This document shows, one piece after another, positions 825 to 9,823 of a stretch of 21,924 nucleotides of DNA (position 1 is the first letter of the stretch; each line of letters begins with the position of its first letter). The notes under the pieces were generated by a model that saw nothing but the letters and a program-made list of their open reading frames with translations, did not search any database and had not been told where the DNA came from. The DNA is taken from IMG/VR virus record IMGVR_UViG_2609459833_000005, positions 1-21,924 of that record; one strand, given 5' to 3'. A program made the translations under genes and the position numbers. This DNA comes from a virus (taxonomy: Duplodnaviria > Heunggongvirae > Uroviricota > Caudoviricetes).

Positions 825-1871
825 TTAACGTCCTGCTTTCAGCTTCTGATAATACTCTTCATAAATGCTGCTGGCTGCGCCAACGTCATTCTGCCATTCG
901 CCATTTTTAATGGTTTCAGCATCCGGGTAGAGTGTTTTATCGTTCGCCACTTCTGGACTTAACAGCTTACGCGCCGCAAGGTTTGGCGTTGGATAACCGA
1001 TAGTTTCAGCAACCTGTTTTGCCACATCCGGGCGCAGCAGGAAGTTGATCAATTTCAGCGCGCCTTCTTTGTTTTTGGCATTTGCCGGGATCGCCAGGCT
1101 GTCCATCCAGAAAATGCCGCCTTCTTTCGGCCACACCACGTCAATTGGCGTACCCGCCTGGCGTGCAACGAAAGCAGAACCGTTCCAGATCATGCCGAGG
1201 TTAACTTCGCCTTCCATGTACGGGTTCGCCGGGTTATCGGAGTTAAAGGCTGCCACGTTTGGCATCAGTTTTTTCAGCTCGTTATATGCAGCTTCAATCT
1301 CTTTCGGATCGGTGGTGTTACCGGAGTAGCCCAGCTTACGCAGCGCCATCTGGAACACTTCACGGGCATCGTCGGTCAACAGCAGGCTGCCTTTGTACTC
1401 TGGCTTCCACAGATCGGCCCAGCTGGTGACAGATTTCGGATCCACCGCATCACCGTTAACACCAATCGCCGTCGCACCCCAGATATACGGAATGGAGTAG
1501 TCGTTATTCGGGTCAAAAGGCTTGTTGAGCATGTCTGGATCGAGATTGCTGAAGTTTGTTAACTTCGACTTGTCGATCTTCTGGATCATCCCTTCTTTAC
1601 GCATTTTATCAACGTAATAGGTTGAAGGAACCACCAGATCATAGGCACCGTCTTTGTATGTTTTCAGCTTGGCGTACATGGTTTCGTTCGACTCGTAAGT
1701 CGAATAGATAACCTTAATACCGGTTTCTTTGGTGAACTGTTCAAGCAGTCCTGGCGGCACGTACTCGGTCCAGTTGTAGAAATACAGCGTGTTGTTGTCA
1801 TCGGCGTGAGCGGCGCTCATGCCCAGTGCCAGAGCCCCCGCCGCGAGCAGGTGGCGTGACCATTTTTTCAT
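825..1871 (-). CDS. potD: Spermidine/putrescine ABC transporter periplasmic substrate-binding protein PotD
   Basis: 348-aa ORF with signal peptide MKKWSRHLLAAGALALGMSAAHA and the recognisable PotD sequence; start overlaps the potC stop. Confidence 0.95.
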   Translation of the reverse strand: MKKWSRHLLAAGALALGMSAAHADDNNTLYFYNWTEYVPPGLLEQFTKETGIKVIYSTYESNETMYAKLKTYKDGAYDLVVPSTYYVDKMRKEGMIQKIDKSKLTNFSNLDPDMLNKPFDPNNDYSIPYIWGATAIGVNGDAVDPKSVTSWADLWKPEYKGSLLLTDDAREVFQMALRKLGYSGNTTDPKEIEAAYNELKKLMPNVAAFNSDNPANPYMEGEVNLGMIWNGSAFVARQAGTPIDVVWPKEGGIFWMDSLAIPANAKNKEGALKLINFLLRPDVAKQVAETIGYPTPNLAARKLLSPEVANDKTLYPDAETIKNGEWQNDVGAASSIYEEYYQKLKAGR

Positions 1872-2662
1872 TTAACGTCCCCTGTGTTACCTTTCGTTTT
1901 ATCACGAGCAATAAGCTGGCTGGCAATAACCATCACCAGCGACAGCACCAGTAATATGGTTGCCAGCGCGTTAACTTCCGGCGATACGCCGACTTTGACC
2001 ATCGAATAAATTTTTAACGGCAGAATTTCATAACTTGGTCCGGTGACGAACGAAGAAACTACCACATCGTCCATCGACAGGGTAAAGCTTAACACCCAGC
2101 CCGCCGCCACCGCTGGCATTGCCAGTGGCAGAATGATTTTTCGCAGAATGGTAAATTCGCTGGCACCGAGATCTTTCGCCGCTTCCAGCATTCGCACGTC
2201 AAAACCTTTCAGGCGCGAATACACCGTCACCACCACAAATGGCAGGCAGAAGGTGATATGCGAGAACAGCAGCGACCAGAAGCCAAGCTGAATACCCAGC
2301 AGCATAAACAGCACCAGCAGCGAAATCGCCATCACGATATCTGGTGACATCATCACCACAAACAGCATTCCGCTAACGAACGGCTTACCACGAAAGCGAT
2401 AACGGTACAGCGCAACTGCCGTCAGTGAACCGATAAGCGTAGCAAACGTCGCCGAAAACACCGCCATTGTTAGTGAATGCTGCGCTGCCTGTAACAGGCT
2501 GTCGTTGTTCATCAGCAGGCTATACCATTTGGTGGTAAAACCCTGCCAGTTGATGCCAAAGCGCGAGCTGTTAAAGGAGTTCACAATCAAAATAATGATT
2601 GGGATATACAGGTACGCGTAGATAGCGGTCATAAAACCGCCGCGAAGCAGTCGACCGATCAT
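1868..2662 (-). CDS. potC: Spermidine/putrescine ABC transporter permease PotC
   Basis: 264-aa polytopic membrane protein MIGRLLRGGFMTAIYAYLYIPIIILIVNSF...; ABC permease EAA-like loop (EAAKDLGAS). Confidence 0.95.
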   Translation of the reverse strand: MIGRLLRGGFMTAIYAYLYIPIIILIVNSFNSSRFGINWQGFTTKWYSLLMNNDSLLQAAQHSLTMAVFSATFATLIGSLTAVALYRYRFRGKPFVSGMLFVVMMSPDIVMAISLLVLFMLLGIQLGFWSLLFSHITFCLPFVVVTVYSRLKGFDVRMLEAAKDLGASEFTILRKIILPLAMPAVAAGWVLSFTLSMDDVVVSSFVTGPSYEILPLKIYSMVKVGVSPEVNALATILLVLSLVMVIASQLIARDKTKGNTGDVK

Positions 2663-2828
2663 TCGAGTTCCACCTTCTTATTCATAAGGTGGAGCACTTT
2701 CAGGATTTTGAATTTATTCAATTTTTTCCTTTCTCCAAAATCTCTCCAAAACTTTTCCCCAAAACAAGGCCACGCATTTTACAACACTTTTTTCCTGAGA
2801 TGGTGACGGATATTCCATATGGTGTTTG
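2663..2828. other. Prophage left attachment region (attL) between potC start and integrase 3' end; site of potB displacement
   Basis: potB, which should lie directly upstream of potC, is missing; phage int begins here. Region holds direct repeats tctccaaaa (2732-2740, 2743-2751) and ccccaaaa (2757-2764) and an inverted repeat ccacctt...aaggtgg (2671-2693). Exact core not determinable without attR. Confidence 0.5.
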
Positions 2829-3947
2829 TCAAATAACCAACTTAACCCATTCCTGACCTCGAGTATCGTTATAGCGATCGGTGGTAGCCTGGACTTTATG
2901 TCCCAGTAATGTTTTTGTATCGACACCCTGTGCGCGGTACAACCGTTCTGACAGGGAGCGTTGTTCATGAAATGTTGGCGGTGTTTTTCCTGCTGGTGGA
3001 ATTATTCCAGCCAGATCTCGCGCTTTGGCGAAGTAATCGCTCAGGTTGTCTTTACTCATCGGTTTTGGTTGTTTCTGGTGCCTACTATGGATTAGGTATG
3101 GACTCAACATTCTGTCCCTGCATCCATCAATAACTTCTTTTAACGATACCCCAATTTCATCGCATCGTAGCGTAAGAGGTAAGGCCAGACGCATTCCGGT
3201 TTTTCCTTGGGTTATATGTAGATGTCCATTCCATACATCTGAAAAACGCATGTGGCAAATGTCATCACGGCGCTGACCAGTAACAATCGCAAGAAGCATT
3301 GCGTTACGGATAAAGTGTTTTTCTGGCGTTGCATTATAAATTTTTTGCCAGTCTTCCAGGGTGAGTCTGGATCTGGTCACTTTAGGGATCGGTTTACGGG
3401 TAGCCTCCGGAGGATTCCATCCAGGAGGAACTTCTCCCGCATGCTGTGCTTCTTTATAAATATCAACCCATAATCCGCGATTTACTCTTGCTGTGCTGAC
3501 CATGTCTTTATCCATCCACTCGTCCAGTATTAATGCAAAGTCTCTTACCTCCAGTTCTTTCAATGGGTGGTTTCCCAGGCGGGAAACCAGGTATGCAGCC
3601 ATTCGCACTTTTTCTTTGTGGGTTGTAGCTGCAATGTCTCCATTTTTCAGTCGCGAATCCTGTATTTTCAGATATCGATCAACCCATGCCTTTAATCTGA
3701 TACCCCGACGTTTTGTTGCTGATGGACTTTCATCAATTTTGCGCATGAAATATTCTGCTTCTGCTGCAGCTATTCGCTGATTGGCTGTTGCAGCGATTTT
3801 TTCTGCCTTGACTTTGTCTGTCCCAAGTCCGTGAAATTTTCCAGTCACAGGATTTTTATACTGGTAGTAAACCTTGCCAGTTCTGCGATCAAACTTTTCG
3901 TAAAGAGCTGCTACGTCAGTACTGTTTTTTCGTGGCCTCGGTGACAT
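2829..3947 (-). CDS. int: Phage integrase, tyrosine recombinase
   Basis: 372-aa ORF adjacent to att; C-terminal catalytic-type residues (…GQRRDDICHMRF…, …LLGHKVQATTDRYNDTRG…) typical of lambda-family integrases. Confidence 0.9.
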   Translation of the reverse strand: MSPRPRKNSTDVAALYEKFDRRTGKVYYQYKNPVTGKFHGLGTDKVKAEKIAATANQRIAAAEAEYFMRKIDESPSATKRRGIRLKAWVDRYLKIQDSRLKNGDIAATTHKEKVRMAAYLVSRLGNHPLKELEVRDFALILDEWMDKDMVSTARVNRGLWVDIYKEAQHAGEVPPGWNPPEATRKPIPKVTRSRLTLEDWQKIYNATPEKHFIRNAMLLAIVTGQRRDDICHMRFSDVWNGHLHITQGKTGMRLALPLTLRCDEIGVSLKEVIDGCRDRMLSPYLIHSRHQKQPKPMSKDNLSDYFAKARDLAGIIPPAGKTPPTFHEQRSLSERLYRAQGVDTKTLLGHKVQATTDRYNDTRGQEWVKLVI

Positions 3948-4246: not shown

Positions 4247-6685
4247 TTAAAAATCAGCCTGACTCGGGATCAGTTTTTGCCAGATAACTGAAACGTATTT
4301 TGCCTGGTAACGGGCGTCATCAAGTGCATTATGGCGCTCACCTTCGAATGGAATAGCCGTTCTGGCATCGAAGTCTATGGCTTTCCCCAGCTCAACGATT
4401 GTGCGTACATCGCGATCGTTGTAGTAACGCCACGGGCAGGGGATCCCCTGCCGTTCGTATGAACGGCGCAAAATCGTGTTTTCGAAGTTGGCTCCATTTC
4501 CCCAGACCTGAACAAAAAATTCACCGGAGTTTTCGTCGATAAATTCCCGCAATTGTAACAGTGCATCATCTAACGGGATTTCATCGGTCATAATGGCAGA
4601 CTGCGCTTCACGTGATTGCTTCAGCCACCTTTTAATGACGTCACGATCAATGACTCCGCCAGCAGTTTCCAGATCGATAGTCTTACTAAATTCCGGTCCC
4701 ATATCTCCGGTTTGCGGATCGAAAAATATTGCATCTATTGAGATAATCGGGGCATCAGGATTTTTGCCCATTGTTTCAAGGTCAATCATCAGATGGTGCC
4801 ACAACCTGCTGGTGGATGTGCTTTTACGATGACCGTTCACCTTAATTAAGGGATTTGCTGTCTCGCCTATTTCATTATTGTCATTGGCATGTTGATCGCC
4901 TTCGGTGCACTCCTTGTTCGGGAGTCCGGCACTTTCTATTTCCTCTGGATCTTTTTCCCGGGCTTCATCCTGGCTTTCTTCGTTGAATGTCTCCTGGTAG
5001 GTTGCGTCACCCATCACTGCGCCACAATCAGGGCAGTTACCACCACCAGTCTGATTGCATGCGGTACAAACTTTTTCCTCTTCCTGTTGCACGACTGGTT
5101 CAGGTTGTTTCGTTTCTGGCTCGTTTTGTAACGCATTTGGGCTGTTTTGTTCCGCTTTCTGGTCGTTCTGTTCCGATTCTTGCTGGTTCTGGTTTACAGA
5201 ATCGCGGGTTTCAATCCCCTTTACCCATTTCGGATCATTCGGGTCGCTAATCCCTGCAACAAATTCTCCGCGAGAGGCAGCAAGCAACTTATCGGCGTCA
5301 GGCTGGCTGATATTGGCTGCCTGCATAATTTTGTTTACTTCGTCAGCGGTAACTTTTACCTGTGACTTGTCATCCAGCGGCTGCGGGTCCTGATGATGTT
5401 CAACTGTATCCGCTGCCATTGTTTCAGCCGTTGCCTGTTCATCTGCCATTGCGCCAGATGGTTGCGGGTTATCTTCATCATTTTTTTCTTCTTCTGTTTT
5501 GCACTCAGCAGCCAGTCCGCCGTTAATTTCTTCCAGGATATCTTTTTCCGGTGTATGCCGGGCAGCCATGAGCGTTTCAGCTGTGGGATTCTCGTGATCA
5601 GTTTCTGTCAGGTTGGCATTGATATACCCCTGAAGGCGCCCCGGGTAGTGATAAAACTCAGGGTGGGCGCTTCGGATAAGTGCAAAAATAGCTGCGCGGG
5701 AATAGTCCAGGATACCAGGGGTTGCGCGAAGTGCTGCGGACCATTCCCTGAACGGACTTTCTTTTTTCAGGACGATTTCTTTTGCGCGACGATAAACGCT
5801 GCCCGGAATTTCATAAATATTAAAATCCATCGGAAGTGTGGCTGCTGCAATCTCCACATCCAGCGCATCGAAGGTGTGTACTAAATTCGGATTGCGATCG
5901 GTTTTGTTCCCGCCACCGGCATTTGCACCGGAAGCCGTACGGGTGATACGCGAAACACGATTTCCTTTCATCCACTCTTTTGTCAGCAGACCCCGATCAG
6001 TGTAATCAGCGTCCAGGTATGCCTCGAAAAAAGCAGTTATCAGTCCCAGGTCTGAATTACCGGGATTAGGGAAAACTTTGTCAGTGTCGCGTACCAGTTT
6101 GTGAAGGTCGCGAATCTCCAGCGGGTCGAGCAGCTTTGTTTTGTGAGAAATGGCCAGGGCAGTAACAGCCGGCAGTTCTTCCGCCCGTGCTATATGTAAT
6201 GCCTGAAGTTCTTCCCGTGCAACGTGCGTTACTGGTTTTTCGCTGCTGTGTTGCGCAAGCCAGCGAATGGGCAGCTCCTGACCAGAAACCGGCAGGAGCA
6301 TATTCTCCTCAATCTCCGTCATGTCTTCGCCGTTGACGTTGGTATTGTCAGTACTGGCTGGTTTCTCCTGCACGGAGGGAGAGGGCGCGATAAATACCAT
6401 TGTAATGCCATCTTCCCCGCCTTTTTCGTATCGGTTGCAGAATTCGGTATCAAACACGCCTTCAGGTGGAAGGTCATTCACAACGGGTAAATGGACGCGA
6501 ACGGGTTTTTTAAAGTCGTCTTCATCATAATCGTTGTCATCCATTGCGGTAATGCAGCGGGAGATGGCAACAGATAATTTTTTTGCTGTAGTCCAGTAAA
6601 AACCACCTTTAATTCCCAGACGTTTTCTGACTTTGTCATTTTTTGCTTCGCAATATAGCGCAAATTCTTCTTTATCAGTGCTCAT
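4247..6685 (-). CDS. Exodeoxyribonuclease VIII-like prophage protein with C-terminal DEDDh (DnaQ-like) 3'-5' exonuclease domain
   Basis: 812-aa ORF; C-terminus has MIDLETMG (Exo I D-x-E) and [10 protein letters not shown] (Exo III with His); internal zinc ribbon [16 protein letters not shown]; long acidic low-complexity linker. Position matches the early-left recombination gene of lambdoid prophages. Confidence 0.6.
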
Positions 6686-6777
6686 TGATAAACCTCATTA
6701 CAGATTTAAGGGTGAACAAATCCCTGCCATTGCTGGCATTTTTAATCCGTTGGTATGGTGTTAATATGGCTGGAGGG

Positions 6778-6966
6778 TTATCCAGCCGGTGTTTCGTTAT
6801 TCAGGTACAGCGATACTTTTTTTACCGGGAGGCATTCACCAGAAATTTTTTGCTCGTCTCTTGCCTGGAGGCAGGATTCTTTACTGGCATAAATTCCGGT
6901 AATCACATTCTGTGATTCACCCGTTATAAGAAAAACCGTCATCATCAGTGCAAATGCTGAAGTCAT
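6778..6966 (-). CDS. Small hypothetical protein, positional analogue of Qin YdfD
   Basis: 62-aa ORF overlapping the dicB-like stop (ATGA overlap); hydrophobic N-terminus MTSAFALMMTVFLITG. Assignment by synteny only. Confidence 0.4.
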   Translation of the reverse strand: MTSAFALMMTVFLITGESQNVITGIYASKESCLQARDEQKISGECLPVKKVSLYLNNETPAG

Positions 6967-7151
6967 TGACGCTCTCCGAAAATACCAAGTTCAAGAAGAG
7001 CAATTCGGGAAAGTATGGAATTATCATTGAGCAGATAAGGCTCATATTTCCTCATATTAATGGCATCTTCAGTAAACTCCCGGTTACTGAGCAGAACACC
7101 AATATCAAAACAACCTTCAGACGTATTAACGTTTGGTAATAACGTTTCCAT
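6963..7151 (-). CDS. dicB: DicB-like cell division inhibitor (Kil-type)
   Basis: 62-aa ORF METLLPNVNTSEGCFDIGVLLSNREFTEDAIN... closely matches the remembered N-terminal half of E. coli DicB (MKTLLPNVNTSEGCFEIG...TEDAINKRK); same length. Confidence 0.7.
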   Translation of the reverse strand: METLLPNVNTSEGCFDIGVLLSNREFTEDAINMRKYEPYLLNDNSILSRIALLELGIFGERQ

Positions 7152-7329
7152 TATCGCGTCCTCAACAATGAATTTTGTGATGCAGTGCCTGGTGCCTCCA
7201 GGTGACGTTAACCAGTTAACAATTAACGCCGGGTTAGTTGATGCTCGTTACGCCAGTAAAAGACCGCCTTACTGCTTTAACTGTTCCGCGTGCGCATAGC
7301 CGCATTCACCGCATCACAAAATTCACTTT

Positions 7330-7385
7330 AAAAAGGGTGGCAGAGCAGTCACGGAGTAGAACTGATGCCACCAAATACTACACAT
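7330..7385 (-). ncRNA. dicF: DicF-like small RNA (ftsZ-targeting sRNA of Qin-type prophages) ending in an intrinsic terminator
   Basis: Minus strand reads uuugguggcaucaguucuacuccgugacugcucugccacccuuuuu: stem GGUGGCA/UGCCACC plus U-run, nearly identical to remembered DicF; sits about 180 nt upstream of dicB-like gene as in Qin. Ends approximate. Confidence 0.55.
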
Positions 7386-7685
7386 GGGTATTGTGGCGGG
7401 GCTGTCACTTAAGCGTATGGTCAACCTGACGACCCGGTGCATTTTCTGGAGCAATGGAGGAAGCCCCAGCCATACTTACCGCCGCGCCATTTCGCGGACT
7501 GCCACAACCGGAAGTGCACGGTCGAAGAAATTTAACGACAAGCTTTATATGCAAAGGAATCTCGCCGTGCGCTTTCGTGTTGTGTGCCTGCTTTTAACCA
7601 CGTCAGGCGAGGTGGTTTCCGTCATTCCCCAATAACAGGAAATCTGTATAATCTGGATATCCCCAACAACAGGAAGGTGTTTTAT

Positions 7686-7844
7686 ATGGTGGTTCAAAAG
7701 AATTGTTCAGGTACTGGTAAGCCTGCGGACAGGGCGGACATTCCGAATACCAGGAAACATATACCTGAGAAAAACATTCGACCAAAACCATCTCCAGCTC
7801 CTTCAGAGGAGAGGGGGAACAGCAACAATCAAACAAGCAGGTGA
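7686..7844 (+). CDS. Possible 52-aa hydrophilic Pro/Lys/Arg-rich small protein immediately upstream of the 2-TM gene
   Basis: ATG at 7686 preceded by SD aggaagg (7671-7677, 8-nt spacer); stop 7 nt before the next start. Low-complexity product, coding status uncertain. Confidence 0.3.
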   Translation: MVVQKNCSGTGKPADRADIPNTRKHIPEKNIRPKPSPAPSEERGNSNNQTSR

Positions 7845-7850
7845 TGATAT

Positions 7851-8297
7851 ATGGACCGGGATGATATTCTTGACAGGGTTTTATATGGTTATTTTCTTGA
7901 ACAACTATTCTCTGTAGCGACTGGTCGTCTCGATAAACTTTTCTCAGTGGTGAGTATTATCCTCGGTTCATCTGTCATTGGTGGATTTATTCCTGAAGTT
8001 TCTGGAGTTCTCATTGTTGTGATAGCAACCGTTCAAACGATTTACGGATTCGGACAAAAGTCAGGTAACGCAATGAGAAAATCCGCAGAATATCTGCAGC
8101 TTTATGATGATGCAGAAAAATATTCCGATTCGGAATTGAAAATGCAGTTAAAGCTCCTGGAAAAAACAGATGATAATATTTGGTCGTCGCTTAAAGATAT
8201 CGCAATCTTAAAAACCCAGATCAAAATAGGAATCTCCGTAGAACAACAAGAGAAACTGTCTGCAAAATCCAAATTGATGCGATTCCTTTGTGGTTAG
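7851..8297 (+). CDS. Hypothetical two-transmembrane-helix membrane protein (candidate superinfection-exclusion or abortive-infection moron)
   Basis: 148-aa ORF in AT-rich DNA; SD aggtga 7 nt upstream; two adjacent hydrophobic helices (LFSVVSIILGSSVIGGFIPEV, SGVLIVVIATVQTIYGFG) then a charged helical C-terminal domain. Opposite strand to all flanking early genes. Confidence 0.7.
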   Translation: MDRDDILDRVLYGYFLEQLFSVATGRLDKLFSVVSIILGSSVIGGFIPEVSGVLIVVIATVQTIYGFGQKSGNAMRKSAEYLQLYDDAEKYSDSELKMQLKLLEKTDDNIWSSLKDIAILKTQIKIGISVEQQEKLSAKSKLMRFLCG

Positions 8298-8395
8298 GAA
8301 TACCCAGATTGTTAAAGAGCATGCCGAATGCTTACCCGTGTCCGGCGAACGTATTCCACTTCGCCTGTGGAGAACTCTTTAATTACTAACCTTCA

Positions 8396-8635
8396 TCAGT
8401 CAGAGTTTCTTGCTAACCAGCGACGCGCGCCAGCTTCCGTTTTAAACGTTTTGCTTCTGGTATACGTCATCGCGGTAAACGTGCCGTCCAGGTTGGGGAA
8501 TACTCCACATACCAGAGATTCGTTGTTGCCAAGCTCGATAGTATCCATGCTGACCTCATTTCCCCTTAACGCCGGGGTAGCGGAACTAAAAACCTGCTGC
8601 GCTGTTATACAAAGTGTTCCCGCCGTCATGTTCAT
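8396..8635 (-). CDS. Hypothetical early protein, first ORF of the leftward operon
   Basis: 79-aa ORF directly downstream of the leftward operator/promoter region; basic C-terminus TRSKTFKTEAGARRWLARNSD. Overlapping plus-strand ORF 8328-8657 judged less protein-like. Confidence 0.45.
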   Translation of the reverse strand: MNMTAGTLCITAQQVFSSATPALRGNEVSMDTIELGNNESLVCGVFPNLDGTFTAMTYTRSKTFKTEAGARRWLARNSD

Positions 8636-8823: not shown

Positions 8824-9114
8824 TTAACAGCTTTTGTTTGGATACTGCCTTCGTGAGTGAACTACATTTACGATCTCGATGTTAGATGCTGTTACTCGGT
8901 AAAGTATTATGTAGTTAGGATGGGTCACTATCTCACGAAGGCCTAGAGCTCTTTCGCTTGGTGGATACAGGTAAGGGTGTTCAGTAAGTGACAAAACTGA
9001 TGTTTCAATGCGTATTTTTAGTCTACGTGCAGCGGGAGGGTTTTCCTTGGCAATATAGGCTACGATCTGACGCAAATCATCACGCGCAGAAGGTAGCCAT
9101 AAAATGGGCAGCAT
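8824..9114 (-). CDS. parE: ParE/RelE-superfamily type II toxin
   Basis: 96-aa ORF with ParE-like motifs (ARDDLRQIVAYIAKENPPAARRL, YIILYRV, IEIVNVVHSRR); start overlaps the stop of the upstream 63-aa ORF. Confidence 0.8.
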   Translation of the reverse strand: MLPILWLPSARDDLRQIVAYIAKENPPAARRLKIRIETSVLSLTEHPYLYPPSERALGLREIVTHPNYIILYRVTASNIEIVNVVHSRRQYPNKSC

Positions 9115-9305
9115 TACTCACTCCTGTTCGTCGAAGCTATTTGCGCAATAAGGTTTTCCATTTCAGCCATTACTTCGTCATGCGGAATTGCAGGACGGGG
9201 GTCTGCGAGGCTTGCTGCCACTTTGGTGCGTAACCATTCGTTATAGCTGTTTTCTTGTTCGATTGTTTCAAATTCTGAAATTATCGGGGAAAGGACTGTA
9301 CTCAT
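9114..9305 (-). CDS. Small antitoxin partner of ParE (PaaA-like, 63 aa)
   Basis: 63-aa acidic ORF with strong SD gaggagg 8 nt upstream; translationally coupled to parE. Size and context match the PaaA antitoxins of three-component PaaR-PaaA-ParE systems described in E. coli O157 prophages; family assignment from memory. Confidence 0.6.
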   Translation of the reverse strand: MSTVLSPIISEFETIEQENSYNEWLRTKVAASLADPRPAIPHDEVMAEMENLIAQIASTNRSE

Positions 9306-9322: not shown

Positions 9323-9823
9323 TTAGGCGCGAAGACCTTTTTGCGCCTCTAGCCACCGCGCAACGGTTTCTTCAATTGATTCTTTTTTCTCCTTCATTTC
9401 CTTAAGCATTTTCTCTTTGTCTTCTTTTGGGAAAGCCCTGAACGTCTGGATCAAATCTCGCTCTATAGGTTCTATATTAAACGGAAGTTCGTTTTCCGAT
9501 TGTTCCATCTCTGCGGGTAAAGCGACAACATTATCCTGCTGCAGTTCTTGGGGGTACATCCTTACAATTCGTAACAAGTCTGCCATATCTGGTCTAATTG
9601 ACTCAGGCGGAACTTGTAGCAACCCAGCGAACTTGATAACAGCCTCTAGATTTAAAGGTGTCTGACCATTTAGATAATGGCTTACTGCCCCTTGTGTCGA
9701 AAAACCCAGAATTTCTGCCGCACGCTCTTGGGTTAACCCAAGTTGAGTTTTTTTCGTCGTCCAGATTTCTTTCAGTCTCTGGGCGGCTTGCAGGTCGATC
9801 TCTGACAGGGGTTTTCTTTTCAT
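9323..9823 (-). CDS. Prophage repressor / transcriptional regulator, HTH XRE-family (PaaR- or DicA-like), no autocleavage domain
   Basis: 166-aa ORF; N-terminal HTH (LGLTQERAAEILGFSTQGAVSHYLNG); C-terminus charged and helical with no S24 peptidase Ser/Lys or Ala-Gly motifs; divergent from the cro-like gene across an operator-bearing intergenic region. Confidence 0.75.
   Translation of the reverse strand: MKRKPLSEIDLQAAQRLKEIWTTKKTQLGLTQERAAEILGFSTQGAVSHYLNGQTPLNLEAVIKFAGLLQVPPESIRPDMADLLRIVRMYPQELQQDNVVALPAEMEQSENELPFNIEPIERDLIQTFRAFPKEDKEKMLKEMKEKKESIEETVARWLEAQKGLRA

Follow-up and report, generated by a model that had tools for sequence, protein, structure and literature searches.

The stretch of DNA considered here, 21,924 nucleotides in length and referred to as a whole as the window, carries on its minus strand an allele of the small RNA (sRNA) DicF, a structured spacer that forms the leader of dicB, the dicB gene itself, and an overlapping ydfD-type gene (Table 1). 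An earlier note had described a DicF/DicB-like module on this strand, and all four of its elements were found where the note had placed them. The alignment with dicF-dicB-ydfD of K-12 is colinear, with 83% column identity, the arms of the spacer, the GTTAAC hairpin, the Shine-Dalgarno (SD) sequence, and the first 35 codons of dicB being nearly identical. We consider it very likely (a probability of about 0.9) that we are dealing with a lambdoid prophage and, within its early-left operon, with the dicF-dicB-ydfD segment, a homologue of the dicBF operon carried by the K-12 prophage Qin.

Table 1. Features of the module and of its surroundings in the window
Feature	Position	Strand	Basis
ydfA homologue (DUF1391)	8396..8551	-	Pfam DUF1391, 95.9 bits
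Imperfect helix of ~24 bp in the ~200-nt leader upstream of DicF	7502..7584	-	Predicted in K-12 and in the window
DicF sRNA allele	7335..7387	-	Rfam RF00039
Structured dicF-dicB spacer (dicB leader)	7167..7327	-	Inverted repeat, fold, STnc100 covariance-model match
Pseudoknot 5' strand CAGUUAA	7277..7283	-	Predicted pairing with P4 loop UUAACUG (7219-7213)
P4 hairpin (GTTAAC repeat)	7204..7230	-	Predicted folds
P5 hairpin CCUGG-AGGCA-CCAGG plus CAC	7185..7202	-	Invariant domain signature
dicB, 62 aa	6963..7151	-	Pfam, NCBIfam, identity to K-12
ydfD-type gene (DUF1482), 62 aa	6778..6966	-	Pfam DUF1482; phrog_1092

The likeness to the Qin operon (ydfABC-dicF-dicB-ydfD) concerns the order and spacing of DicF, the structured spacer, dicB, and the overlapping ydfD, and it extends to the leader, both RNase III helices, the 3' half of DicF, and the presence of ydfA as the first gene. 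Different from Qin, ydfB and ydfC are absent, and their place is taken by a boxA-like site and by an opposite-strand gene for a 148-aa protein (7851-8297), which lies between ydfA and dicF. Furthermore, the repressor/promoter region differs, with the insertion of a RelB-ParE/RelE pair, divergence affects DicB in its C-terminal half and YdfD over most of its length, and at this end the prophage appears complete and not a remnant. In EHEC (Sakai and 86-24, with four dicF copies and pchA activation), DicF likewise occurs on different lambdoid prophages (PMC7873438, PMC5069750).

Parts of the module are present in 4,727 of the 5,426 complete E. coli genomes, where the places matching it number 2 per genome in the median and 10 at most. 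Since thousands of genomes repeat the arrangement and the E-values are far below 1, the module is not due to chance. A RefSeq locus with 99.9% identity annotates dicB and a DUF1482 gene, and the DicF feature is absent from the annotation of the matching RefSeq loci that we checked, although dicB is named there. The dicF-dicB-ydfD cassette has been known since 1989-1990, and the module, judged by its sequence, is an ordinary copy of this well-studied prophage cassette, to which it adds little beyond the point of annotation just mentioned. A PADLOC search for defence systems gave no match for DicB, YdfD, the 148-aa protein, or the ParE/RelE toxin.

The DicF allele and its predicted pairing

The Rfam model RF00039 matches positions 7386 to 7335 of the minus strand over its entire length (1 to 52 of 52), with 62.0 bits against a gathering threshold of 48 bits, no noncanonical pair, and an E-value of 1.2e-11 computed for the whole window; DicF of K-12 reaches 76.7 bits on the same model. 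The covariance-model search, which the earlier note had proposed as a way to refute its "near-copy of DicF," thus scored the region above threshold, and the DicF identity stood. The closeness of the copy, however, did not hold at the 5' end, where the first ~15 nt, corresponding to the xylR seed of K-12, are different and 14 nt are deleted upstream. The arms of the stem, GGUGGCA (7372-7366) and UGCCACC (7342-7336), delimit a hairpin spanning 7372-7336, which is preceded by a single-stranded 5' region (putatively 7387-7373) and followed by C7335 and five U residues (7334-7330) completing the intrinsic terminator. The 60-nt fold has a minimum free energy of -15.8 kcal/mol (z of -2.6). Relative to K-12, the stem features the replacement of a U.G pair with C-G and a compensatory change from C-G to U-A, by virtue of which it is preserved. 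The RNA therefore ends in a hairpin and U-run typical of a terminator and Hfq-binding 3' end, Hfq binding itself being predicted, and it lies within the early-left operon, upstream of dicB and downstream of a conserved leader. The allele with the altered 5' end is a minority one, found in ~4% of complete genomes. In the window allele, the stretch holding the RNase E site of K-12 is deleted.

The targets of DicF are known from K-12 (PMC5069750), and the region pairing with ftsZ is the same as in K-12 at 28 of 30 nt. The duplex predicted between nt 21-53 of DicF and positions -29 to +3 of ftsZ, computed against the K-12 ftsZ sequence, amounts to -22.3 kcal/mol versus -27.9 in K-12, and the CUCCG/CGGAG core is unaltered; the pairing with ftsZ, which the earlier note had suggested checking, is thus predicted to be kept in the 3' region. 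The corresponding duplexes with pykA (-25.9 kcal/mol versus -26.9 in K-12) and manX (-28.1 versus -33.9) likewise suggest that pairing with all three targets by the DicF 3' region is retained. As for the xylR seed (nt 4-18 of K-12 DicF), the K-12 allele reaches -20.3 kcal/mol with 13 contiguous bp, whereas the window allele reaches -10.8 with no equivalent duplex, and this allele is predicted to have lost the xylR interaction known from K-12. Membership in RF00039 stands despite the loss of this seed, since the Rfam model treats the 5' region as variable. The energy of the full-length DicF/ftsZ duplex does not separate from those of shuffled sequences (51 of 500 and 136 of 500 as good); since it is nondiscriminating, we relied on the region-restricted duplexes and on the identity to the experimentally validated K-12 site.

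DicB and the YdfD-type protein

The product of dicB, whose open reading frame (ORF) begins 183 nt after C7335, is recognized by the Pfam profile DicB (PF05358) over residues 1 to 62 of 62 with 125.5 bits (cutoff of 27) and by NCBIfam NF049927 with 114.2 bits (cutoff of 100). The DicB-like ORF noticed earlier about 180 nt after DicF is therefore a full-length DicB, and its possible lack of DicB homology, which the note had named as a refutation, was examined by these profile searches, where the homology is clear. The identity to K-12 DicB is 63%, with the differences concentrated in residues 36 to 62, and the length is exactly 62 aa in all 30 alleles (100+ loci). The SD sequence GAGGA (7163-7159) is located 4 nt past the 3' arm of the helix closing the spacer. 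A search for a solved structure of DicB found none.

The second ORF, which had been reported as overlapping, shares 4 nt (ATGA) with dicB, and it could be identified further as a YdfD-type lysis-protein homologue (DUF1482, PF07358, 56.3 bits with a cutoff of 25; phrog_1092) that shows 45% identity to K-12 YdfD and a hydrophobic N terminus, MTSAFALMMTVFLITG. As the arrangement of the two ORFs indicates, the ydfD-type gene is probably translationally coupled to dicB through the ATGA overlap.

In K-12, DicB causes a division block dependent on MinC and ZipA and inhibits phage entry dependent on ManYZ and FhuA (PMC6832061, PMC10448788), while YdfD is a lysis protein inhibiting IspG (PMC8835842). 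By analogy, the division block and the inhibition of phage entry by DicB and the lysis by YdfD may be carried over to the products encoded here. The earlier statement that the operon alters phage susceptibility agrees with the published K-12 work (PMC6832061). In the early-left operon of lambda, the same position is occupied by Kil, a small inhibitor that is directed at FtsZ and produced upon induction; as a protein, Kil is unrelated to DicB.

The structured domain between dicF and dicB

The spacer is a 160-nt structured domain closed by a helix, P1, of 21 bp (7327-7307 with 7187-7167), which was also detected as an inverted repeat, and the fold predicted for K-12 agrees with that of the window. 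Its core comprises the motif GGUGAAU (7310-7304), the helix P2 (~7304-7286), and a variable region (7276-7231), the internal part of the spacer being hypervariable between alleles. In lambda, the leader of N has a helix cleaved by RNase III just upstream of the SD sequence, and the dicB leader may resemble that layout.

The repeat of unknown role that the earlier note had pointed out at 7207-7227 (gttaaccagttaacaattaac on the plus strand, GTTAATTGTTAACTGGTTAAC on the minus strand) is indeed present and is 100% conserved in K-12; its role can now be refined to that of a hairpin and pseudoknot loop within a conserved structured leader with a known RNase III site. In particular, the hairpin P4 consists of the arms GGCGUUAAUU (7230-7221) and GGUUAACGUC (7213-7204) and of the loop GUUAACU (7220-7214), and a P4 hairpin is present at this position in 94 of the 107 unique elements, its arms taking 36 distinct forms. 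The Klebsiella phage L128 carries GAUACCAG and CUGGUAUC in place of these arms and retains the loop UGUUAACUGG. In 91 of 94 unique elements, the segment J2/3 and the P4 loop are complementary over at least 5 bp, and more than 30 different pairs of sequences are involved; among shuffled P4 loops, 61% reach 4 bp or less. Furthermore, covariation is observed in P1, in P2, and at the middle pair of P5, where U-A is replaced by G-C. In the covariation analysis, 98.9% of the cells are paired, nine pairs have changed on both sides, and none of 500 shuffles is as good, the representatives used for the P1 statistics having been preselected for at least three outer P1 pairs (106 of 125 unique elements qualify).

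The spacer matches the STnc100 model (RF02076) with 30.5 bits (E-value of 7e-5) in the window and 34.4 bits (E-value of 7e-6) in K-12, below the gathering threshold of 47, and for this reason we describe the two as architecturally related without assigning the spacer to the family. A true STnc100 is present in the same window at 21543-21748 (143 bits), and it holds (at 21672-21689) one of the only two occurrences of the pattern CCNGGAGGCACCNGGCAC in the window, the other being the P5 site; none would be expected by chance. The spacer shares with STnc100 and PasD the motif GGUGAAU, the series ACC-CCNGG-AGGCA-CCNGG-CAC, the closing helix, and the pairing of the P4 loop with the segment after P2. 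Different from STnc100, the closing helix measures 21 bp rather than 8 to 10 bp, P2 is of another sequence type (GCGGCU..GCGCACGCGG), and the spacer has no Rho-independent terminator of its own, the DicF terminator lying before it and the SD sequence and ATG of dicB or kil after it. The class with a long P1, a T-run upstream, and an SD sequence downstream includes 49 unique cases; downstream of the same structured spacer, Stx phage 75/02 and phage pPE4 carry a gene annotated as Kil instead of dicB. An identity with AgvB/AsxR was considered for the short-P1 elements and rejected, Rfam giving only STnc100 matches on 13 loci. In our literature search, no paper was found linking the dicF-dicB spacer to STnc100.

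Expression of the operon and alternative readings

The leader upstream of DicF is conserved with K-12 from ~7585 downward, and the imperfect helix within it probably corresponds to the RNase III site of K-12 at which the 190-nt DicF precursor acquires its 5' end; this precursor depends on RNase III in K-12 (PMC10448788), and its 5' end aligns with ~7514 in the window. For the 72-nt form of DicF an RNase III cut has been published (PMC5069750, PMC9438474), and its 3' end, counted from the conserved hairpin, would map to 7316|7315, within the 5' arm of P1. The K-12 transcripts comprise a terminated species of 1,146 nt and a read-through species of 1,608 nt, and they end after ydfD, with no longer species (PMC10448788).

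A search of the minus strand from 7400 to 7850 for a promoter of dicF itself found no sigma-70-like site, and the K-12 promoter dicBp is not conserved in the window, where the ydfA ribosome-binding region alone aligns. A promoter-like site (TTAACA-17-TATTGT with an extended TG) lies at 8754-8726 of the minus strand, with a terminator-like site upstream (8809-8792). These sequence features suggest that the promoter-like site is used and that ydfA is the first gene of a leftward operon supplying the dicF-dicB transcript. Since the gene for the 148-aa protein lies on the opposite strand between ydfA and dicF, the operon transcript must cross it in the antisense direction.

On the model of K-12, where the individual steps are known, it is possible to hypothesize how the module of this prophage, integrated next to potC/potD, would operate. 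Upon relief of repression, transcription would start upstream of ydfA and proceed leftward through the leader and DicF. Part of the transcripts would stop at the DicF hairpin and U-run and be trimmed by RNase E to a short sRNA, and the remaining ones would read through into the structured spacer, where RNase III would cut the closing helix, giving the 72-nt DicF and a separate dicB-ydfD message. With Hfq, the 3' half of DicF would pair with the ribosome-binding site of ftsZ and block FtsZ synthesis, and DicB would bind MinC, bring it to the septum, and block Z-ring function, besides inhibiting ManYZ/FhuA-dependent phage entry; the YdfD-type protein would act as a membrane-anchored lysis protein.

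It could be argued that the module, although intact in sequence, is a silent relic no longer transcribed after the replacement of the upstream part of the operon, given the missing ydfB and ydfC, the inserted opposite-strand gene, the loss of dicBp, and the lack of a promoter-like site adjoining DicF. We regard this as quite improbable, since both ORFs are intact, 16 other loci encode an identical DicB allele, the DicF stem carries a compensatory change, conservation extends to the leader and to both processing helices, and a promoter-like site precedes ydfA; moreover, 7 other loci show the same arrangement, including a same-strand boxA located ~900 to 1,000 nt upstream of DicF, and the prophage retains int, xis, exo, and replication and Q-like genes. 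A different proposal would have the DicF hairpin act mainly in cis, as a leaky terminator gating dicB-ydfD, with a trans role weakened or retargeted by the new 5' tail. The hairpin and its U5 stand directly before toxic genes, K-12 has both terminated and read-through transcripts (PMC10448788), the 5' tail differs with the loss of the xylR pairing, and two changes reduce the predicted ftsZ pairing by ~5.6 kcal/mol; however, the near-identity of the ftsZ-pairing region to K-12 includes the anti-SD core, and loop bases without a part in termination are conserved across alleles, as expected of a trans-acting seed, which makes this proposal unlikely.

With regard to the spacer, we tentatively put forward the possibility that it is an unrecognized divergent member, in K-12 too, of an STnc100/PasD superfamily of pseudoknotted prophage RNA domains. 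Its P1, lengthened to 21 bp, would allow excision by RNase III, so that the operon might yield three RNA products, the third being a stable RNA released from the spacer, or the domain might control the translation or stability of dicB in cis. The domain would, moreover, act as a transferable leader placed before either dicB or kil, and it would also provide the framework of free-standing sRNAs, which occur in arrays of as many as four. The matches to a curated covariance model in both the window and K-12, the two occurrences of the 18-mer signature, and the covariation of the domain, P4 and the pseudoknot included, argue for this kinship, as does the element order common to the spacer and STnc100 (P1, GGUGAAU, P2, pseudoknot strand, variable region, P4, ACC, P5, GGCAC, P1). 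The hypervariable internal region resembles a seed cassette, STnc100-type copies have been detected as RNA (PMC12370729), and a preprint considers STnc100 and PasD to be sRNAs that act by base pairing and whose seed regions are described (10.64898/2026.05.13.724894). Against it stand the score under the gathering threshold, the preselection behind the P1 statistics, the leader-type copies that run straight into SD-ATG without a terminator of their own (49 + 11 unique cases), and the literature examined, which reports no transcript of spacer size for K-12; moreover, the conserved structure could serve solely to present the RNase III helix. An STnc100-type spacer adds to the main explanation and does not exclude it. 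That the spacer is instead a processive antiterminator RNA of the put type of phage HK022, promoting read-through of downstream terminators, appears highly improbable. Both are structured, cis-acting RNAs of lambdoid early operons, the spacer is conserved in phages without an obvious N gene, and terminators often follow STnc100-type copies. However, put RNAs are ~70-nt two-stem structures (PMC9378689) as opposed to a five-element pseudoknotted domain, the K-12 transcripts end after ydfD (PMC10448788), and STnc100-type copies are discrete RNAs that stop at terminators of their own. An identity with HK022 put itself was rejected, the signature GGAGGCACC being absent from the HK022 genome and architecture and size being different (PMC9378689).

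Natural DicF alleles such as this one, in which the half pairing with ftsZ, pykA, and manX is predicted to be kept and the 5' tail is swapped, may offer a test of how the target sets of prophage sRNAs diverge. If the tentative kinship of the spacer is correct, its shared, covarying pseudoknotted core would link one of the oldest sRNA loci to an abundant and functionally obscure family of prophage RNAs.

The dicBF cassette in the window

The module on the minus strand is real, already known and very common in prophages. Alignment with the Qin prophage region of E. coli K-12 revealed colinearity over dicF-dicB-ydfD, with most of the spacer between DicF and dicB near-identical and about 200 nt of leader conserved upstream of DicF. 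A 1-kb query (window positions 6700-7700) had matches in 4,727 out of 5,426 complete genomes of E. coli (a median of two per genome, ten at most) and in 97 phage records; a single place covered at least 80% of the query in 1,011 genomes. Colinearity with K-12, together with occurrence in most E. coli genomes, therefore identifies the module as the known dicBF cassette. The earlier note, which had read here a DicF sRNA plus a DicB-like division inhibitor, was correct, and all its particulars were confirmed.

In particular, the proposed near-copy of DicF, with its hairpin and U-run, was recovered by the Rfam covariance model RF00039 at 7386..7335, over the full model and with all stem pairs canonical (62.0 bits, gathering score 48; E 1.2e-11 in the whole window). 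Folded by itself, the hairpin has a predicted energy of -15.8 kcal/mol (z -2.6 relative to shuffles) and, with its loop and U-run, is near-identical to that of K-12; from K-12 to the window, one stem pair changes on both sides (C-G to U-A), a U.G becomes C-G, and one loop U becomes C. The 5' end differs: CCAUGUGUAGUAUUU stands in place of the first 15 nt or so of K-12 DicF, UUUCUGGUGACGUUU, and the 14 nt directly upstream, within which the K-12 RNase E 5'-end site falls, are missing. This 5' end occurs in 6 of 123 DicF occurrences (viral contigs, K-12 and the window) and in about 207-209 of the 5,426 genomes, and is a minor part of the remaining novelty.

DicF uses its 3' part to pair with ftsZ and its 5' part to pair with xylR (mSystems 2016, PMC5069750). 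Region-restricted duplexes of DicF with K-12 target sequences were predicted for the 3' half at -22.3 kcal/mol with ftsZ (K-12, -27.9), -25.9 with pykA (K-12, -26.9) and -28.1 with manX (K-12, -33.9), and for the 5' tail at -10.8 with xylR (K-12, -20.3). The pairing to ftsZ that the earlier note proposed to check is predicted at the same -29..+3 site in both alleles, with the anti-SD core intact, whereas the 13-bp K-12 DicF/xylR duplex has no predicted equivalent in the window allele. Since whole-molecule duplex energies were no better than those of shuffles, the case for targeting is based on identity with validated sites.

The first 62-aa ORF, placed about 180 nt past DicF in the earlier note, encodes a full-length DicB (Pfam, 125.5 bits, cut-off 27; NCBIfam NF049927, 114.2 bits, cut-off 100) with 63% identity to the K-12 protein; the Shine-Dalgarno sequence and first 35 codons are near-identical to K-12. 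The second, overlapping 62-aa ORF is likewise present, belongs to DUF1482 (56.3 bits, cut-off 25) and shares 45% identity with K-12 YdfD. All 30 DicB alleles have exactly 62 aa, and that of the window recurs identically in 16 other loci, mostly beside a K-12-type DicF, so that DicB alleles and DicF 5' alleles reassort. The hairpin across the ydfD stop codon is not followed by a U-run and might therefore serve in processing or stability at the end of the 1.6-kb-type transcript.

Positions of the cassette and of neighboring features in the window
Feature	Positions	Strand	Details
potC/potD with integrase	825-3947	minus	integrase 2829-3947
812-aa exonuclease	4247-6685	minus	
Hairpin GGCUGGA-UAACCC-UCCAGCC	6767-6788	minus	spans ydfD stop codon
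ydfD-type ORF, 62 aa	6966..6778	minus	start overlaps dicB stop (ATGA)
dicB, 62 aa	starts 7151	minus	183 nt past last hairpin base; Pfam, NCBIfam
Closing helix, 21 bp	7327-7307 / 7187-7167		
Hairpin CCUGG-AGGCA-CCAGG	7202-7188	minus	then 3' arm of closing helix
Repeat gttaaccagttaacaattaac	7207-7227		
DicF and U-run	7386 to 7330	minus	CAUGUGUAGUAUUU-GGUGGCA-UCAGUUCUACUCCGUGACUGCUC-UGCCACC-C-UUUUU
Direct repeats TCCCCAAYAACAGGAA	7626-7641, 7660-7675, 7741-7756	plus	third copy 81% identical
148-aa gene	7851-8297	plus	between ydfA and DicF leader, opposite strand to operon
boxA TGCTCTTTAACAA	8321..8309	minus	7 nt on, hairpin ATTCCT-AACCACAA-AGGAAT (both, 8282-8321)
ydfA	8396-8551		DUF1391
Terminator-like hairpin of toxin	8809-8792		
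ParE/RelE-family toxin	8824-9114	minus	region 8824-9305
DicA-like repressor	9323-9823		
sok	16033-16207	plus	117.6 bits
Three tRNA genes	20463-20711	plus	late region
TerB-domain gene	20813-21316		
STnc100	21543-21748	plus	143 bits

Prophage context

The flanking genes are those of a lambdoid prophage: potD/potC, integrase, excisionase, an 812-aa exonuclease, a DicA-like and Cro-like HTH pair, YdaT, replication genes, hok/sok (with its sok antitoxin RNA), a Q-like protein, a methylase, tRNAs and STnc100. The integrase adjoins potC/potD, so the prophage is located at the pot operon. The exonuclease joins an Exonuc_VIII N-terminal region to a C-terminal Rv2179c-like 3'-5' exoribonuclease domain through a long acidic low-complexity middle. 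The same locus occurs at 99.9% identity in a RefSeq genome, where dicB and DUF1482 are annotated; that copy carries an IS4 between ydfD and the exonuclease gene, which the window lacks. A RelB antitoxin partner is also annotated there for the ParE/RelE-family toxin that lies, with its own terminator-like hairpin, between the DicA-like repressor and ydfA.

Different from K-12 Qin, the locus lacks ydfB and ydfC, and in their place the 148-aa gene lies antisense within the leftward operon. Its product, with two hydrophobic segments, matches only phrog_6315 (unknown function) and nothing in Pfam, NCBIfam or PADLOC; the gene may be a moron. The three direct repeats between the DicF leader and its start may be regulator-binding sites. 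The exact rrn-type boxA and its hairpin look like a nut site directly downstream of ydfA, with no N-like gene evident to go with them; they are missing in K-12 Qin, and in seven other DicF loci they precede DicF by about 900-1000 nt on its own strand.

Operation of the cassette

The course of events is known from K-12 (PMC10448788, PMC5069750, PMC6832061, PMC8835842). A promoter upstream of ydfA is under repressor control. Termination at the DicF hairpin yields a 53-nt RNA, and read-through with RNase III a 72-nt RNA (PMC5069750, PMC10448788), the latter an RNase III product (PMC5069750; PMC9438474). DicF with Hfq blocks ftsZ translation (PMC5069750), DicB works via MinC and also blocks inner-membrane phage receptors (PMC6832061), and YdfD inhibits IspG, leading to cell lysis (PMC8835842). 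The division inhibition and altered phage susceptibility mentioned in the earlier note agree with this literature (PMC5069750, PMC6832061).

A 19-nt inverted repeat (7325-7307 with 7187-7169) lies within a 21-bp helix, alike in the window and K-12, which in the RNAfold prediction closes a multi-branched domain. By counting, the 3' end of 72-nt DicF, 19 nt past the 53-nt form, falls at 7316|7315, in the middle of its 5' arm; the helix would therefore be the RNase III substrate. In the window copy, a promoter-like site at 8754-8726 would be used, both RNase III helices (7584-7502 and 7327-7167) appear conserved, and ftsZ pairing would be kept, as the predicted duplex suggests. That the module is a silent relic is unlikely, because its alleles are intact and recurrent and a compensatory change is seen. 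A purely cis-acting terminator role for the DicF hairpin is improbable and leaves the conservation of its loop bases unexplained.

The dicB leader and STnc100

The repeat reported between DicF and dicB is predicted to form a hairpin within the multi-branched domain; GGCGUUAAUU (7230-7221) and GGUUAACGUC (7213-7204) are its arms and GUUAACU its loop. The loop sequence UUAACUG has its complement, CAGUUAA, at 7283-7277. The dicB Shine-Dalgarno sequence begins 4 nt past the 3' arm of the closing helix.

The signature 18-mer of the spacer, CCNGGAGGCACCNGGCAC, has one further window copy, inside the STnc100 match, and a sensitive Rfam scan of 7100-7620 aligned the spacer to STnc100 at 7337..7119 with 30.5 bits (E 7e-5), falling short of the family's threshold of 47; the K-12 spacer reached 34.4 bits (E 7e-6). 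Scanning viral contigs with the signature returned at least 120 stretches and, together with the loci already fetched, at least 125 unique elements. Among these listed matches and fetched loci, all 125 share one order: closing helix (P1), GGUGAAU, P2 hairpin, short strand, variable region, then the P4 hairpin, ACC, P5, GGCAC and closing helix. In 25 dissimilar representatives from the same set, pre-selected for at least three outer P1 pairs (present in 106 of the 125 unique elements among the matches listed), 98.9% of cells pair and 9 of 19 pairs change on both sides, a covariation matched by 0 of 500 shuffles. P4 abuts ACC in 94 of 107 unique elements among the listed matches and fetched loci, with 36 different arms. 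Of the 94 among the matches listed, 91 have a P4 loop that forms 5 bp or more with the post-P2 strand, in more than 30 different sequence pairs; 61% of shuffled P4 loops reach at most 4 bp. One Klebsiella phage has compensating sequences in place of the P4 arms and middle P5 pair, with the loop unchanged.

By context, the elements fall into two types. In the leader type the closing helix is long, with a terminator U-run directly upstream and an SD-ATG directly downstream. In the free-standing type, which matches STnc100 in Rfam, the closing helix is short and frequently has a terminator of its own behind it; this type can form arrays of up to four in viral contigs (tandem example in contig L141, 2265-3380). 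The window's full STnc100 sRNA, downstream of the TerB-domain gene and a small hydrophobic ORF, has its core in common with the dicB leader. Two phages, Stx phage 75/02 and pPE4, have a gene annotated as Kil, not dicB, downstream of the leader type, and the upstream sRNA body differs; at these loci (L127, 1501-1994; L129, 1501-2156), the conserved leader, terminator U-run and spacer flank a different sRNA body, followed by kil. Since sRNA body and division inhibitor both differ, the position behaves as a cassette with both parts exchangeable.

A put-like antiterminator in the spacer was rejected, the signature motif being missing in HK022 and the architecture different. A functional STnc100-family RNA would fit all that was found and is possible, if rather doubtful. 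A 2026 preprint (10.64898/2026.05.13.724894) relates STnc100 to PasD and does not mention DicF, and the literature found mentioning STnc100 together with dicB does not draw the link. Beside the DicF 5' allele, the relationship between the dicB leader and STnc100 makes up the residual novelty; it is of moderate interest and testable in K-12.
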